A stretch of 39,825 nt of DNA, from sequence record MH031343, one strand, 5' to 3'. The stretch comes from Escherichia phage vB_EcoP_S523. The number at the start of each line of letters is the position of its first letter. The first letter of the stretch is position 1. The translations under genes were made by a program, and so were the position numbers. Under the pieces are notes generated by a model. That model ran no database searches. It was not told the DNA's origin and saw only the letters and a list, made by a program, of their open reading frames with translations. Positions 10,314-33,154 of the stretch are shown here, one piece after another.

Positions 10314-10583
10314 TCAGTTAAGTGTGTACTTCTCATCTTCAGTGAGGCCATCAGCACCAACTAGGTTCTGGTACTCTTCGAGTCCATCTGCCAGTCCACC
10401 AAGGATGTTACGGTCTGGTTGTAACTTGGAGACTTGGAACTTATGGCGCTCTAACAGTTTCCCGATTGCGTTGTACAATTGAGGTGTACGGCGTTCATCG
10501 TTCTGCAAGTCAGCAAGCATACGTTGAGCCATCTCAGTGTCCAGCATCTCAAGGAATTGAATTAAGGACTTATCATTAGACAT
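10314..10583 (-). CDS. terminase small subunit (gp18), 89 aa
   Basis: MSNDKSLIQFLEMLDT...; same length as T7 gp18. Confidence 0.85.
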   Translation of the reverse strand: MSNDKSLIQFLEMLDTEMAQRMLADLQNDERRTPQLYNAIGKLLERHKFQVSKLQPDRNILGGLADGLEEYQNLVGADGLTEDEKYTLN

Positions 10584-10782
10584 CTTTACCCTCCTTCTTC
10601 CATTTGATAATCACATCGACTACCTTGGCACCAATTTGAGCCACTGTGTAGGCAATTGCGGCTACATAGAACCACTCGTTAAGGGACAGTCCGAAGAACA
10701 GACGGGCAGCACCATCGGCTACACCTGTCCCTACAATCGGAGCAGCCTTCACTACCTCGTTGTTAAAGTCTAAAGACAACAT
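10576..10782 (-). CDS. holin (gp17.5, class II), 68 aa
   Basis: MLSLDFNNE..AAPIVGTGVAD...FGLSLNEWFYVAAIAYTV like T7 gp17.5; overlaps gene 18 start. Confidence 0.85.
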   Translation of the reverse strand: MLSLDFNNEVVKAAPIVGTGVADGAARLFFGLSLNEWFYVAAIAYTVAQIGAKVVDVIIKWKKEGKDV

Positions 10783-10829: not shown

Positions 10830-12854
10830 TTATTGGGTTTGAACTAAGATTCTCGTAGGTACAGAACTACGGTCAGCATCATTACGGAAAGTTCTCCCGT
10901 TGTTGGAGATTGTGAACTGTAACCACCCGCCCATAGAAGAGATGTAGTATGCACCGTTATCACCAATCTGAACAGGGTTCCAGCGTCCTCGAGTTTGAAT
11001 CCAGATGGTTCTCCATCGGACATCCTGTGAGAGACCTACGGATACCCCACCACCAGCGGAACCTTTCCACACCTCAGCCCAGCCAGCATTCTTACGAATG
11101 TATCGACCGTCAGCGGCACCTTGGGTTAAACGACCATTAACTAGGTTGTTCACCTCTCTTTTGTTATAGGCATGTTCACCAAGGCGTTTGTTGACCCAAC
11201 CGTCGATGTAAGAATCATACTTCTTGATGTATAAGTTACCATCTGCCGCAATCTGCCACCCCTTACTACTTGCCAATGCGCCTTGAATAGTCATTGTAAG
11301 GGCATGTTCATTACCGCCATCCCCCTTGAGTTGGATGATACCATCGTGGAAGTTGTTGCTACCCTTGGATACCATACCGATGGAGAATGCCGCCGGATAA
11401 CCATTAGAGCGTCTACCATATTGTTTAATCATAGGGTAATACACGTTGCCATCCTGATTTCCGGGGAGGCTTTGCGAGTAGGGGGCATTGTTATTCAACT
11501 GGTTTGCGAACCCTCCTGACCCAAAAGTTGACTCAGTGTAGAATCGCTCATCAGCCCTGATATACTTAGATACTCGAAGATAACCATCCATAGATACGTT
11601 CTGGTAGAACCGTGAATCATGGTGAGAGTGGAATCCACCGTAGAAATCGTGGCGTCCGTTCCCATTGGAGCGACCATCAGGCCACTTAGATGGGTCCGTG
11701 TTTGTAAACACATAGTAGTCCATGCGTTTTGGTCCGGCCTGAATCCACTGTTCCCAAACAGTCTCCTTACTGCCCTCCCCACGCCATTGGGTCCACACCA
11801 AGTCAACTGGCTGTGTACCAGCACCTTTTGCATCATTTCGCAACGTAAAGTCCTTACCAGATACTTTGCGCTTGAAGTAAACATCAGGAGCCTCAACCCT
11901 GTCGATAGCCTCAGCTAGTGAGTTCATATTACCCAACTTGTCAGCCTCAGCCTTAGCACGGTCAGCCTCACCTTTGGAGCGGTTTGCCTCAGTGTTGGCT
12001 CGGTCAGCATGTCCCTTAGCGGTCTCAACATGTGCAGCAGCTTTGGCAACCTCAGCAGCAGCTTTAGTCACTTCTCCGGCAGCACGATTGGCCTCATCAC
12101 GGGCACGATTGGCCTCAGAGTTGGAACGGTCAGCTTGCTTCTTGGCCTCAGCGACACTTGCGGTCATACTATCAGCATAACCTTTAGCTCGGTTAGCCTC
12201 AGAGTTGGAACGGTCAGCTTGCTTCTTGGACTCAACTGCTTGTTGCGTAGAGACACCTGCCTGTTGCGTTGAGCGGTCAGCTTCACGTTGAGCACGGTTG
12301 GCCTCATCACGAGAACGGTTTGCTTCCTTATTGGCCCTGTCAGCGTGTTCGTTAGCTTTTGTTACGGCATTCCATGCAGAGGATTCACGCTCTTTAACCT
12401 GCTTTAAAGGAACGGCATCATAGTCACTTGTGGCATACGCCAAGTTAACAATCTTACGACCACGAGCATCTAAGTGACCGTCATTGTTGACACCAATGGT
12501 ATCCGCAGTGAGGTCTCGTGCTTCTTCAGCAACATGCAGTGTTTGAATCTGCGAGATGTTCAGGTCATATGCACGGAGGATTGAGCCATCAGCAAGGTCA
12601 ACCAGACGATCAGTAGCCGAAGTGAATCGACGAATCTCAATCATCTGGTAGCCATCAGCGGCAGTCCACGCACGGGTAGTAGTAATTTGAGTCTTACTGG
12701 TAAAACGATAGTCCTGATTGAGAACCAGTTCTTTACGGTCTTTACCAATAAGTGTCACTTGGATGAACTTACGTGCCAGATAATCAAAGGTAATCGTGAA
12801 ATTCACGGCACCATTCAGCGGGTAAGTCATCACAGTACGAATCTTGTTAGCCAT
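10830..12854 (-). CDS. tail fiber protein (gp17), 674 aa, with extended shaft and distal domain
   Basis: N-terminal about 150 aa and C-terminal about 90 aa match T7 gp17 (FEYLARKF..VTLIG, GSAGGGVSV..SQD); central ADRxNxEANR repeats; about 120 aa longer than T7 gp17 (553 aa). Confidence 0.9.
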   Translation of the reverse strand: MANKIRTVMTYPLNGAVNFTITFDYLARKFIQVTLIGKDRKELVLNQDYRFTSKTQITTTRAWTAADGYQMIEIRRFTSATDRLVDLADGSILRAYDLNISQIQTLHVAEEARDLTADTIGVNNDGHLDARGRKIVNLAYATSDYDAVPLKQVKERESSAWNAVTKANEHADRANKEANRSRDEANRAQREADRSTQQAGVSTQQAVESKKQADRSNSEANRAKGYADSMTASVAEAKKQADRSNSEANRARDEANRAAGEVTKAAAEVAKAAAHVETAKGHADRANTEANRSKGEADRAKAEADKLGNMNSLAEAIDRVEAPDVYFKRKVSGKDFTLRNDAKGAGTQPVDLVWTQWRGEGSKETVWEQWIQAGPKRMDYYVFTNTDPSKWPDGRSNGNGRHDFYGGFHSHHDSRFYQNVSMDGYLRVSKYIRADERFYTESTFGSGGFANQLNNNAPYSQSLPGNQDGNVYYPMIKQYGRRSNGYPAAFSIGMVSKGSNNFHDGIIQLKGDGGNEHALTMTIQGALASSKGWQIAADGNLYIKKYDSYIDGWVNKRLGEHAYNKREVNNLVNGRLTQGAADGRYIRKNAGWAEVWKGSAGGGVSVGLSQDVRWRTIWIQTRGRWNPVQIGDNGAYYISSMGGWLQFTISNNGRTFRNDADRSSVPTRILVQTQ
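12112..12229 (-). repeat. in-frame direct repeat inside tail fiber shaft region (34-nt identical copies at 12112..12145 and 12196..12229, 84 nt apart)
   Basis: gcctcagagttggaacggtcagcttgcttcttgg occurs twice; encodes repeated KKQADRSNSEANRA. Confidence 0.7.
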
Positions 12855-12901
12855 CTGTAGCCTCCTTTCGAATGTGTTGGATAGAGGGAAGCTGTGTGAG
12901 C

Positions 12902-12924
12902 CTTCCCATTAGTGAGTCGTATTG
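12902..12924 (-). promoter_or_regulatory. phage RNAP promoter upstream of tail fiber gene (phi17-like), CAATACGACTCACTAATGGGAAG
   Basis: Promoter core match about 50 nt upstream of gene 17 ATG. Confidence 0.75.
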
Positions 12925-12925
12925 A

Positions 12926-15900
12926 TTACTTCTTGTCAGCCTTAAGGTGAACACCATTAGCCTCATAGAACTTAATGAGCATCTGTTGAGTGATAGGGTC
13001 ATTAGGAACCATCTCACGATGAGCGTTCATCAAGCCAGTCATCATCTCACGCTCGGTCACTTTGTTAGGAGCCGTTAGGACACCATAAGCATTTCGACCA
13101 GCAGCAAGGGTTGCCCCAGCGAAACCAAGAGCGGGAATCTGTTCACCAATAGCGCCCATGATGGATTCTCCCATATCACGAGAGGTCACTGCTTTATTCC
13201 GGTCACGCTTGTCTTCTCCTTTCGGTAGAATCGTAGAGCGCACCATGAGACCTTGGTCGTAACCAGCAGCACCCATAGCGAAGTTGGCGATACTCAACGG
13301 GGAACCTAAGTGTGAACTACGGGAGGCCGCAGCGTAGGCAATCATCTTCGGGTCGAGGGCTTTCTTCAAGTAATCCTTCTGTTGCTCTTTAGGAAGACCA
13401 GCAGCTTTCAAGTGAGCCTGTGCCACATAGTAGGAGCCAGCAATGCCACCAGAGATAGCATAGGTCAGCGCCATGTCCATAGCACGGTGGTTCTTAAAGG
13501 CTTCGTTGCCAGAGCGGATAAACTTAGAGTTCATCGACTTGATGACAAACGACTTAAACTGAAGGACTAACTTAGGGATAGCACCATACGCATGGGAATC
13601 CTGTAGGGAAACCTTATGAGGTCGGAGCATCGTTTCATCAGCAACCTTATCAGCTAAACGCCATAAGTCCATAGCACGAGGGTCATTCGCCAGCTTGCGC
13701 TTATCCTTGAAGGTGAACTTACCGTCTTCACCACGAGTCACGTTCTCACGAATGAGGTTCTGAATGCCTTCCCACTGTTCCTTAGAGATACTCGCAGACT
13801 TCAGCATGTCACCTTTAATCCACTTGTTGGCACCTTTGCCAGTGATAGCATGAGTGACCACATCTCCCATCACACCCTGTCGAGCCATATCGAGAATGTA
13901 GTTTGACGTACCATTCAGGAACTTGGTGAGCGGGGAGCGAGCAGCTAACTCTTGAGTCGTGTGCTTGATAGTCCCTACAGCCTTAGCAGCCATATCTGGA
14001 GTATCGGTTGACTCGCGTAGTCGCTGAACGATGTCTTGACGAGTCGGACGAATCAGGTCGTCGAACTCTTTACCAAACACCATTGAGTGGAGTTCCTTGA
14101 GTTCCTTACCAGAGACTGGCTTGTTGCGGAACGCTAAGTCACGCAGAGCAGGAATACCATGCAGCATCGCACGAGTGTTACCCTTTGCTAAGAGACCAGA
14201 GATTTCAGTTAGGTTCTGCAAGCCCATGTATGCGTTCTTCGTAAAGAATGACATATCGGACAGAGCGCGAACCATAGTGTCACCTACGGTATCCTGATTG
14301 CGACGAGCGCGACCAGTGAGAATCTTAACGGTATCTTTCAGTGCCTCTACTTCACCTTTCATCGTACCCTTCCCTTCTGACTTCTTATCGAGAGCCATAA
14401 TGGAATCTTTCAGTTCAGCAGTTGTCTTCCCTGTTCCACCCATGATTGCAATGTCACCATCAACACGTCGGTCATAGGCTGGCATCACACGCTTCATATC
14501 GAAGTCACGGAGGTCATTCACAGAGAACGGCTGTCCATTCGGTAAGGTAACTGGCATGTCAGAGTCGAATAGGTTACGGGCTTCAAGGAACGAGTTGTTC
14601 TCAATCCCCACGAGACCCTCAATGTTATCGTCGATGACACTTGAAGAGTTGAACTCATCAGTCTTCGCAATACCATAAGCCTTATCGCTGGCATGTTTCA
14701 TCACCATCTCTTCGGTAACAGCCTTTGGGTCGATACCCAAGGTCTCCGCTAAGTGCTCATCCACACGAGCCTTAACTTCAGGACGTGAACGGTAAGAGGT
14801 CATCCAGCTTGCAGCGATAGCTTCCTGTAAACCGTCAGTACCGCCAAGAGCCTGTGAGTACAACTGCTTGGCTTCCCGCGAGTACACATGAGGAACGTAA
14901 GTCCCTTTGTGACGACTATTGGGGAAGATAGAAGTTGCCTTGTTACCAAACATAGACGGGTTCTCCATCATCTCACGCTTGAGGTCGAAATGTTCCTTCA
15001 TGATGTCCATTACCTTACGCTCAGCCTTCGTTAAGTTGGCCTGAAGTTCTGGACGCTCAATAGCGATTGCAGCACGACGATAGATTTCCTGACGAGCACC
15101 TTGAGCACCCTGCTTGAACATACCCACAGACCACTCAGGGTCAGCCATAGCTTCCTTCATTGCACTATAGAGGTCGTTGTAGGTTCGTTGGTTCGTACTG
15201 TGCAGACGCTCTTTAATGTCAGAGGCAGTAGCACCGAACTTACCGTGAGTACCTGACTCCATACCTGTAGGTGAGCGCACTAAGTCCTTAGCGAGACCAC
15301 GGATTTCAGCGTGTTCAGAACGTAAAGTCCTCAAGCCGATTTCACTCAGTCCACGCATAGGCAAGCCCCACGCAGCACGTTCAGGGTCTACTTCTGCGAA
15401 CTCTTTGGCTGTCATTGGGTTAGCCAAGTTTGTATCACTGATAATGGAACCATCACGCAACACTACGGCACCCGGTTCAGTTTCAAGAGGTGAATACTCA
15501 ACGCCATTGTGATTCGAGAACACTCGGTCTTCACTAGGAGGCATACGGCTTGCGTCGTGCCCACCTGTGTTACGTGCAGTCTCACGAGCCTCAAAGCGCA
15601 TCTGTGCAGCAGCGAATGGGTTCTCAATCTGTTCAGCACCGGACTTACGGAGACCAGCAGCCACACCATCAGCGATAGCAGTAAGGCCACCAGCGAACAG
15701 CATACCAGCAAGGGCAGCTTCAGCATAGTGAGCATCACCGCCAGCAACCGATGTGCGGAGTCCTTCAGAGGCCACGTTGAGAGCGCCAGCTTGAGCACCT
15801 ACAATCAACGCCTTGTTAACCAGCTTGAACCCTTTAGCCGCAGTCCCAGCGATAGGAACGTAGGTCAACGGGTCAACACCAGCACCAATAAGGCCAGCAG

Positions 15901-32816: not shown

Positions 32817-32817
32817 A

Positions 32818-32890
32818 CTCTTCACACTTGTCAGCAAGCATGTTGCCCTCAGAACTCTTCACACTTGTCAGCAAGCATGTTGCCCTCAGA
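32818..32890 (-). repeat. 37-bp tandem duplication (2 copies: 32818..32853 and 32855..32890) spanning the gene 4.5 stop codon
   Basis: ctcttcacacttgtcagcaagcatgttgccctcaga repeated back-to-back; the upstream copy encodes the last 12 codons of the gene 4.5-like ORF, the downstream copy is untranslated. Confidence 0.85.
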
Positions 32891-33154
32891 CTCCACGGCT
32901 TTACCTAGCAGAACCTGACGAACATTGTCTTCGCCTACAGCCACAGTAGCGGCTACAGCAACGGAGGCCAGCAGACGACCTGCCTGTGTGTCATCCAGAG
33001 TCACACGCTGTGTGTGCGCCTTGGTTGACTTACTGTCCTTCCAGCGGTAGACCAGAGTTACCTTGCCGTTGCGAACGTTGATGTGCACTCGGCGAGCATA
33101 CTGGTCGATGGTGTCAGACAGACGGATTGTGTTGCCGGGGAATTTAATAGCCAT
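32849..33154 (-). CDS. gene 4.5-like hypothetical protein, 101 aa
   Basis: ORF with ATG at 33152-33154; position between gene 4.3-like and gene 4.7-like ORFs. Confidence 0.55.
   Translation of the reverse strand: MAIKFPGNTIRLSDTIDQYARRVHINVRNGKVTLVYRWKDSKSTKAHTQRVTLDDTQAGRLLASVAVAATVAVGEDNVRQVLLGKAVESEGNMLADKCEEF

Follow-up and report, generated by a model that had tools for sequence, protein, structure and literature searches.

The tail fiber gene and its setting

The window, a 39,825-nucleotide stretch of the genome of Escherichia phage vB_EcoP_S523 (record MH031343), carries an ATG-to-stop open reading frame at positions 10830-12854 on the minus strand, encoding 674 amino acids followed by a stop codon. 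This is gene 17, the coding sequence of the vB_EcoP_S523 tail fiber protein. An earlier sequence-only reading of the same DNA had placed the frame exactly, leaving its strand unstated, and had named the product gp17. The name holds. The protein is identical to AWY04277.1 / YP_009802470.1, annotated as 'tail fiber protein', matches phrog_4242 ('tail fiber protein') over its full length (E=5e-240), and has both an N terminus and a tip of the T7 type. The prospect of full-length identity to a characterised fiber had also been raised; the only exact match is S523's own uncharacterised GenBank entry. Beyond that entry, the best match is the fiber of phage P483, at 90% amino acid identity.

The surroundings of the gene are those of a T7-like phage. 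BA14 and 285P match a 25 kb flank at 93-94% identity, and gene 17 follows gene 16 and the phi17 promoter and precedes holin gene 17.5. The adjoining class II holin gene 17.5 is annotated in the same order in P483, BA14, EG1 and T7. Upstream of gene 17, we assigned by homology a putative phi17-type phage RNA polymerase promoter (caatacgactcactaatgggaag; 12902-12924, minus strand), which shares 22 of 23 bases with the annotated BA14 phi17 promoter at the equivalent position between genes 16 and 17. A Shine-Dalgarno sequence, AAGGAGG, can be read 6 nt 5' of the ATG (12861-12867, minus strand). Two plus-strand antisense frames within the coiled-coil DNA (11938-12180 and 12009-12272) appear in the open reading frame list with no evidence for being genes, and we put them down to the alanine-rich repeat. 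The locus is an ordinary, already annotated tail fiber gene of a T7-like coliphage, and it belongs to a Berlinvirus (BA14-like, T7-related) podovirus.

Length and probable coiled-coil rod of a T7-type fiber

Both ends of the protein are as T7-like as had been claimed. The N-terminal tail-attachment domain (residues 1-154; 12393-12854, minus strand) belongs to Pfam PF03906 (E=1.4e-49). Residues 1-181 match T7 gp17 in the PDB (7boz and others, E=1.7e-65), and identity to T7 over residues 1-150 is 71%. At the other end lies the C-terminal tip (residues 585-674; 10833-11102, minus strand), a predicted receptor-binding domain by homology. With phmmer, residues 583-673 match the T7 gp17 tip structures 4a0t/4a0u (E=5e-23; the T7 tip spans residues 465-553 of 4A0T), and residues 584-673 align with T7 residues 462-552 (E=3e-22). 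Tip identity at the amino acid level is 50% to T7, 92% to P483 and 96% to BA14. A Pfam search did not detect PF12604 in the S523 tip.

At 674 residues against 553 in T7 gp17, the fiber is 121 residues longer, in agreement with the earlier estimate of about 120. Alignment divides this excess among three regions: the coiled coil is longer by about 42 residues, or six heptads; a replaced beta-rich middle adds about 57 net; and the connector helix before the tip accounts for 22. The sequence-only reading had written of an inserted central domain and an extra distal module; the excess is neither one inserted domain nor such a module. When T7 is the only comparator, 121 additional residues and the lack of any match to T7 gp17 for residues 333-583 in a PDB search suggest a unique, phage-specific enlargement of gp17 by insertion of a new domain. 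Such an event has next to no chance of being the explanation, since the P483 fiber is identical in length at 90% identity, all Berlinvirus fibers examined measure 655-674 residues with the same additions, and the excess is spread over three regions. The P483 match and the genus-wide alignment refute it. Enlargement as a trait of this phage, as the fiber had been described, is likewise contradicted by these relatives.

Individual lengths are 674 residues in P483, 666 in Carena and FE44, 662 in EG1 and 655 in BA14 and PhiV-1, and the layout is common to BA14, 285P, FE44, P483, PhiV-1 and Carena. In the alignment, P483, Carena, PhiV-1 and BA14 agree with S523 in the length of the coiled coil, the junction and the long connector; EG1 agrees in coiled coil and junction, with 13 connector residues missing. 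Aligned with P483, Carena, PhiV-1, BA14, FE44, EG1 and IME390, the S523 protein has the attributes of a Berlinvirus-type elongated gp17: about 655-674 residues, a 21-heptad rod with the KKQADRSNSEANRA duplication, and a lengthened connector. A scan of IMG/VR returned only the already known P483, EG1, FE44 and IME390 genomes. Berlinvirus fibers, like those borrowed from them, are normally elongated; the enlargement is not specific to S523.

The proximal rod consists of 21 uninterrupted heptads with an alanine-zipper-like layout (residues 165-311; 11922-12362, minus strand). Its heptad consensus is [D/N]-R-[A/S]-x-x-E-A, and A, S, V, L or M occupies 41 of the 42 core positions; shuffled sequences (n=2000) reach a fraction of at most 0.67. 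TRF reported a period of 21 in the rod DNA. At the level of sequence, the segment that follows the N-terminal domain qualifies as a probable alpha-helical coiled coil. Within it are the identical 34-nt in-frame copies, 84 nt apart, that had been noticed before. Copy 1 (about codons 209-220; 12196-12229, minus strand) and copy 2, four heptads downstream in the gene (about codons 237-248; 12112-12145, minus strand), both encode KKQADRSNSEA(NRA). In the entire window no more than three exact direct repeats reach 25 nt, and this pair is one of them. The two copies are part of the regular 21-heptad array and do not form a separate array.

Could these copies make fiber length variable? Recombination or slippage between 34-nt repeats 84 nt apart might add or remove four heptads and so generate a population of differing fiber lengths, in the style of a contingency locus; the sequence-only reading had called the repeats a plausible site for repeat-mediated length variation. 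The copies are exact and in frame, a four-heptad unit would preserve both reading frame and coiled-coil register, and CICC 80001, which is distantly related, has a rod with one heptad fewer. Yet this sole listed length variant, whose coverage of 63% puts it outside the set covering at least 80%, is off by 21 nt and not by 84. P483, BA14, FE44, PhiV-1, Carena, EG1 and IME390 all keep the repeat at the same codons with the same copy number, no unit gained or lost. The exact run they retain is 37 nt in P483, 34 in BA14 and FE44, 26 in PhiV-1 and 16-17 in Carena, EG1 and IME390. At least 80% of the coiled-coil DNA is covered by 69 phage records, and the 35 of these that were listed are gap-free and exactly equal in length. 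Over the first 929-1219 nt of the gene, the only length change among the records listed is a gain of 3 nt in Sekstaphage-1. The two 84-nt units themselves are only 60/84 identical, their likeness being confined to the first 41 nt of each. Copy number differing among close relatives, the mark of a contingency locus, was not seen in the seven relatives or the listed records. Because repeat codons and length are constant among relatives, the length-variation claim fails on comparison, and we hold a length-switching fiber to be highly improbable. The KKQADRSNSEANRA duplication, four heptads long and internal to the rod, appears instead to be old and fixed, and not a variable locus.

Alleles of the distal shaft

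The middle of the fiber is, as claimed, the part that differs from T7. BLASTP of residues 323-584 against T7 residues 268-465 found no detectable similarity (best E=1.9). The pyramid family PF20744, which T7 gp17 matches at E=1.6e-40 (T7 residues 371-464), gave no Pfam match at E<=10 in S523 residues 320-674, so the fold of this part of S523 may not be the T7 one. The earlier description of a central domain not seen in T7 therefore stands as regards similarity by BLASTP and Pfam and falls as regards insertion: the region substitutes for the corresponding T7 region and is not added to it. AF2 modelling of residues 320-674 from 12 sequences gave a mean pLDDT of 31.6, and the distal-shaft architecture that follows is the one suggested by sequence comparison.

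We distinguish three segments. The beta-rich middle begins with 'sub-domain A' (residues 325-430; 11565-11882, minus strand), an allele that is 60-92% identical at the amino acid level to Carena, FE44 and IME390 and 23-32% identical to BA14 and PhiV-1. It has no Pfam family; residues of about 342-409 match protein P0016, and the same stretch is present in the P0008 and P0009 sequences. It is followed by a rare allele of roughly 100 residues, the 'NQLN...YYP.IK...GYP.AFS.G' module (residues 433-530; 11265-11558, minus strand). The last segment, defined by alignment, joins a conserved junction, W.I..DGNLYIKKY.SYID.WVNKRL, to the lengthened connector EVNNLVNGRLTQGAADGRY (residues 531-584; 11103-11264, minus strand). 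Its DGN...W...L motif aligns with T7 DGNIQGTKWGGKWLDAYL and is the only portion of the middle, at its terminal end, to do so. The connector extends 22 residues beyond that of T7, and 13 of these are missing in EG1 and IME390.

Different parts of the gene have different nearest relatives. Residues 1-262 are 97-98% identical in nucleotides to PhiV-1 and Carena, and over residues 200-280 nearly every comparison with the seven relatives gives 95-100% identity; the exceptions are EG1 and IME390, which fall to 90-93% in the stretch 201-240. For residues 323-372 the nearest relative is IME390, for residues of about 373-530 only P483 and EG1 come close, and for the tip it is BA14. Gene 17 is a recombinational mosaic, in which a distal-shaft cassette passes from phage to phage between two conserved anchors, the coiled-coil DNA and the DGN junction. 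The conserved junctions of codons 323-530 read ADKLGN and DGNLYIKKY. The S523 cassette is of the rarer P483/EG1 type. Its composition gives no signal of foreign origin (GC 0.45-0.51; elsewhere in the gene 0.45-0.54), and a word-indexed protein search with the middle region gave 2 matches.

The module carries the signature G.GG[FY]ANQLN..AP[FY] ... Y[YF]P.[IV]K ... GYP.AFS.G ... I.L.GD. Its residues Y472, P474, K477 and G493 are invariant. Only P483 and EG1 have close copies (89-91% amino acid identity), other Berlinvirus fibers being 21-28% identical. Among 1.84 billion proteins it has 27 representatives at E<=0.001, and its carriers include T7-like fibers, fibers with a PF12571 tail-collar N terminus and other fiber types; a word-indexed search with the module profile gave 5 matches. 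No Pfam or PDB sequence match was found, profile search included; the top entry in the profile search of the PDB was a lectin (E=0.26), which we dismissed as chance. An AF2 monomer of the module (pLDDT 74.7) is an antiparallel beta sheet. We also rejected the notion that it is a diverged T7 pyramid domain: P0011 and P0014, both T7-like fibers, have the module in tandem with a PF20744 segment.

The evidence divides on whether the cassette, which spans residues of about 373-530 and contains the NQLN/GYP module, acts as a second receptor-binding site, in a lateral position, that sets host range jointly with the tip. It is the most divergent segment, with alleles at 21-28% amino acid identity in a genus otherwise about 93% identical; by contrast, the tip stays at 83-96% among Berlinvirus relatives and at 74-83% in EG1 and IME390, whose fibers are borrowed. 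The cassette is exchanged as a unit between conserved junctions, and the module recurs in fibers with unrelated N termini and in Fels-2 gpH-like and SJ46 fibers. Receptor-binding parts typically recur across otherwise unrelated fibers. For a different allele, the authors of the ETEP21B study proposed a second binding domain here (PMC11267873). Weighing against binding, no lectin or enzyme signature is seen in the module, the lectin hit lacking significance, and in several carriers it sits mid-fiber and is followed by PF21882, PF07484 or PF13884 C-terminal domains. Given that mid-fiber position, a shaft or trimerisation element fits equally well. We regard a second binding site as a tentative possibility, on balance unlikely. 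Less probable still is the broader idea that the module may be an undescribed receptor- or glycan-binding unit moving between podovirus, myovirus and siphovirus fibers. If it were true, the fibers of S523, P483 and EG1 would possess, in addition to the T7-type tip, a second specificity in a lateral position.

Proposed fiber and comparison with known systems

The account we favour, with considerable confidence, is that of a Berlinvirus gene 17 fiber built on the T7-type plan, with genus-standard additions, a mosaic distal shaft and fixed repeats. T7 gp17 is a homotrimer, present as six fibers per virion, and binds the LPS core. By homology with it, three gp17 copies would make up each side fiber of S523, with six fibers in all. 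Residues 1-154 would dock the fiber on the tail. The proximal rod (residues 165-311) would be a rigid triple coiled coil, alanine-zipper-like and 21 heptads long; the distal shaft (residues 325-530) would be beta-rich; and residues 531-584 would supply the conserved junction and lengthened helical connector. The T7-type tip, residues 585-674, would be the part that first, and reversibly, touches the LPS core. We predict from homology that the protein forms trimers, that it binds the LPS core and that the tip acts in this way; the same homology with T7 lends support to the earlier suggestion that this protein is the most likely host-range determinant.

The elongated, mosaic architecture and the repeats are already known and published for sister phages. 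For ETEP21B, fiber elongation and a four-domain AF2-multimer model with extra helices before the tip have been described, including a helical linker insertion in this fiber type, together with LPS-core dependence, seen as a 3-log drop on waaC (PMC11267873). The elongated fiber of Sxt1 has pyramid-region insertions and a 27-residue helical linker insertion (PMC11680406), and for PYps50T the conserved first 320 residues, the repeats at the transition and, in outline, the elongation were reported (PMC8762354). All Studiervirinae tested in the BASEL collection were LPS-core dependent (PMC8594841). The literature searched yielded no experiments on the S523, P483 or EG1 fibers, so receptor and specificity rest on homology with fibers that have different middle alleles.

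These results have little significance beyond routine annotation, the S523 fiber being correctly annotated in its deposit. For host-range engineering, the coiled-coil DNA and the DGN junction could be used as natural swap points in Berlinvirus fibers, and the rare P483/EG1-type cassette with its unannotated module of about 100 residues is a reasonable swap candidate.

As in T7 gp17 (PDB 4A0T for tip and pyramid, 7BOZ/7EY9 for the N terminus), the S523 attachment domain is followed by a coiled coil, a beta-rich distal shaft, a helix and the tip, and genomic position and promoter type agree too. The S523 fiber differs in a rod about six heptads longer, a connector 22 residues longer and, in place of a detectable PF20744 domain, unrelated sequence with about 57 more residues. 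The P483 gp17 (AJF40438.1, Berlinvirus), from a phage whose host is an avian E. coli strain, has the same length, domain order and central cassette, with full-length identities of 90.1% in amino acids and 86% in nucleotides. Its divergence of about 10% in amino acids falls mostly in residues 323-372 (70% identity) and 561-584, and the N-terminal 200 residues of S523 are nearer to PhiV-1 and Carena.

Fibers of the BA14/PhiV-1/ETEP21B type share the N-terminal domain, the 21-heptad rod with the KKQADRSNSEANRA duplication, the DGN junction, the long connector and a tip 91-96% identical to that of S523. In BA14 and PhiV-1, however, residues 323-530 are another allele (23-32% amino acid identity) in which the NQLN/GYP module is not recognisable, and the fiber is 19 residues shorter overall. 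According to the open reading frame list, S523 gene 17 is followed by the holin gene, with no tail fiber assembly chaperone gene after it. A further parallel is the class of mosaic tail fibers whose segments are shared between phage groups, such as P2 gpH and Fels-2. The module is found in fibers with P2-type (PF12571) or other N termini and various C-terminal domains; in S523, unlike these, it stands in a podovirus fiber of the T7 type, upstream of a T7-type tip.

Gene 17 and its surroundings

The window is a deposited Berlinvirus genome in reverse orientation, its remainder being 93-94% identical across 25 kb to BA14, 285P and other Berlinvirus genomes. Gene 17 reads from ATG to stop on the minus strand (10830..12854) and encodes a 674-aa tail fiber. 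Upstream on the same strand, a 1315-aa gene 16 homologue ends at 12926, and the intergenic region holds a T7-type promoter (12902-12924; 22 of 23 bases shared with the annotated BA14 phi17 promoter) followed by a ribosome-binding site, AAGGAGG. Downstream come a homologue of the class II holin (68 aa, 10576..10782) and the small packaging protein, and gene order around the fiber is identical in the P483 annotation.

Elsewhere in the window, we observed an exact 37-nt tandem duplication, tctgagggcaacatgcttgctgacaagtgtgaagagt, at 32817-32890 on the minus strand, at the 3' end of ORF 32849..33154. With it, this 101-aa ORF ends in KCEEF-stop rather than KCEE-stop, and an out-of-frame second copy of its last 12 codons is left behind. 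The duplication could be either real or an assembly artefact.

The coiled-coil rod and its 34-nt repeat

Residues 165-311 comprise 21 heptads without interruption, with the consensus [D/N]-R-[A/S]-x-x-E-A. Of the 42 residues at heptad positions 3 and 7, 41 are A, S, V, L or M; in 2000 shuffles, each taken in its best register, this fraction was at most 0.67. Judged from sequence, this is an alanine-zipper-like coiled-coil signature, as in the known proximal rod of T7 gp17. The coiled-coil DNA also contains two antisense ORFs on the plus strand (11938-12180, 80 aa; 12009-12272, 87 aa). Rich in Ala, Ser and Leu, both are by-products that mirror the heptad repeat, with nothing to indicate that they code for protein.

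A sequence-only reading had reported a nucleotide repeat here, which we recovered exactly: 34-nt copies at 12196-12229 and 12112-12145 lie in frame, 84 nt (four heptads) apart, both encoding KKQADRSNSEA and then NRA. Exact direct repeats that reach 25 nt number only three in the window, this one included. The 84-nt units are alike over their first ~41 nt only, with an overall identity of 60/84.

The same reading had considered repeat-mediated length variation plausible. The repeat stands at identical codons in all seven relatives compared, with no units gained or lost; the two copies agree without a mismatch over at most 37 nt in P483, 34 nt in BA14 and FE44, 26 nt in PhiV-1, 17 nt in Carena, and 16 nt in EG1 and IME390. 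Searching with the coiled-coil DNA by blastn yielded 69 phage records with a query coverage of 80% or more, among them Berlinviruses of Yersinia pestis, Y. pseudotuberculosis, Salmonella, Enterobacter and Cedecea, and each of the 35 listed aligned in a single piece of exactly the query length. The sole rod-length variant among the matches listed was the more distant CICC 80001 (NC_027387.1, positions 5-305), outside this set at 63% query coverage (gene 17 nt 635-956), whose rod is shorter by 21 nt, one heptad, not 84. Because lengths are equal and no unit has changed, this between-phage comparison of seven relatives and 35 listed records speaks against repeat-mediated length variation. By the same comparison of sequences, the duplication is an old, fixed part of the coiled coil.

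Mosaicism and the middle cassette

Segment-wise identities along gene 17 place residues 1-262 nearest PhiV-1 and Carena (97-98% nt), residues 323-372 nearest IME390 (87% nt), residues 373-530 near P483 and EG1 only (86-88% nt) and the tip, residues 585-674, nearest BA14 (92% nt, 96% aa). Against every relative except P483 and EG1, residues 433-530 share 21-28% aa. Codons 200-280, which include the repeats (window ~12015-12254), match the seven relatives at 95-100% nt almost throughout, the exceptions being EG1 and IME390 at 90-93% over codons 201-240. Their flanks stand at 67-88% nt for some relatives, and identity falls to 52-88% for several at codons 141-180 and 301-340. The stretch resembles a recombination tract or anchor common to these phages, and the coiled-coil DNA and DGN junction, both conserved, look like the anchors of exchange.

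Berlinvirus-type fibers also occur in other Studiervirinae genera, in EG1 (classified in Teseptimavirus) and Sekstaphage-1 (Sxt1, a Teetrevirus). IME390, likewise not a Berlinvirus, carries one too; therefore the fiber type moves between genera. In the EG1 fiber the first 120 residues are T7-like, and beyond a breakpoint near codon 120 the rod is of Berlinvirus type and the cassette of S523 type.

By tblastn, the S523-type middle region was found in only 17 of 50,697 phage records. Identity exceeded 80% in P483 and EG1 alone; Sekstaphage-1, FE44, IME390, PHB20, Carena and CICC 80001 formed a 40-45% tier, Pectobacterium phage PcCB251 matched the second half (query residues 92-220) at 55%, and Fels-2 gpH-like and SJ46 fibers matched weakly. 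Among 1.84 billion representative proteins, searched exhaustively with HMMER, there were 27 matches at E<=0.001, nearly all on one ~100-residue stretch (protein residues ~433-530) with the signature G.GG[FY]ANQLN..AP[FY], Y[YF]P.[IV]K, GYP.AFS.G, I.L.GD. Carriers of this module have T7-type, P2-type tail-collar (PF12571) or other N-termini and assorted C-terminal domains (PF21882, PF07484, PF13884). In two T7-like carriers (P0011 and P0014) a PF20744 segment comes after the module, which rules out that it is a diverged T7 pyramid domain. The module matched no Pfam family, and a 20-sequence profile gave no significant match in the PDB. An AF2 monomer model built on the same alignment (pLDDT 74.7, pTM 0.60) has a core of four antiparallel strands, with modest Foldseek matches in BFVD (E 3e-5 to 1e-3, TMq 0.5-0.6) to fibers of Aeromonas T4-like phages and T1-like phages and to gp37 fragments; the model of residues 320-674 reached a pLDDT of only 31.6. 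This unannotated 100-aa module of the rare P483/EG1/S523 allele is the sole mildly new item.

The fiber beside T7 and other Berlinviruses

Both ends of the protein are T7-like, as the sequence-only reading had held. PF03906 covers residues 1-154 (E=1.4e-49), residues 1-181 match the solved T7 gp17 (E=1.7e-65), and tip residues 584-673 match T7 462-552 (E=3e-22). The claimed excess of ~120 aa is 121 aa over the 553 aa of T7. The central domain had been described as an insertion not seen in T7; similarity between residues 323-584 and T7 268-465 is indeed undetectable by BLASTP (best E=1.9), but there is no single inserted domain. PF20744 (pyramid domain, residues 371-464) and PF12604 (tip) score on T7 gp17; the S523 C-terminal half has zero Pfam matches, including to these two. 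Alignment with T7 and five relatives divided the excess among three places: the coiled coil is longer by ~42 residues (six heptads), the beta-rich middle, where the T7 segment is replaced rather than supplemented, by ~57 net, and the connector from the conserved DGN...W...L motif to the tip (EVNNLVNGRLTQGAADGRY) by 22. The earlier observation was largely correct, with the minus strand omitted, and its interpretation too generous.

By homology with T7, trimers would bind the tail through residues 1-154, the 21-heptad coiled coil would form the proximal rod and residues 325-530 the beta-rich distal shaft, and the lengthened helical connector would bear a T7-type tip contacting the LPS core. Six extra heptads would extend the rod by ~6 nm, at ~0.15 nm per residue, and the 22-aa connector, if helical, might add up to ~3 nm. 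That the exchangeable shaft cassette adds a second binding site seems rather unlikely to us; in its favour, the ETEP21B study (PMC11267873) proposed the enlarged pyramid region of a Berlinvirus fiber as a second binding domain. The cassette may instead contribute geometry and trimerisation only.

Fibers measure 674 aa in S523 and P483, 666 aa in Carena and FE44, 662 aa in EG1, 655 aa in BA14 and PhiV-1, and 654 aa in IME390. All seven relatives share the S523 rod and junction; P483, Carena, FE44, BA14 and PhiV-1 also share its long connector, whereas EG1 and IME390 do not. These two lack 13 connector residues (the ETNNLVNGRLTQG region, vs window 11103-11174) that all aligned Berlinvirus fibers contain, so it is in the connector rather than in the coiled coil that these fibers vary in length. 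Hammerl et al. 2022 (PMC8762354) described Berlinvirus fibers as conserved for the first 320 aa and divergent over the next ~180, and noted repetitive sequences where the two parts meet. The ETEP21B AlphaFold2-multimer model comprises adaptor, coiled coil, enlarged pyramid region, two additional short helices and tip, and plating of that phage on waaC was down 3 logs (PMC11267873). In the Berlinvirus-type fiber of the Sxt1 study (PMC11680406), the pyramid region carries six insertions and the helical linker one of 27 aa; its authors judged this fiber to be elongated. The BASEL study (PMC8594841) reported LPS-core dependence in all Studiervirinae tested. The S523 fiber is an ordinary Berlinvirus-type gp17, annotated and described before.
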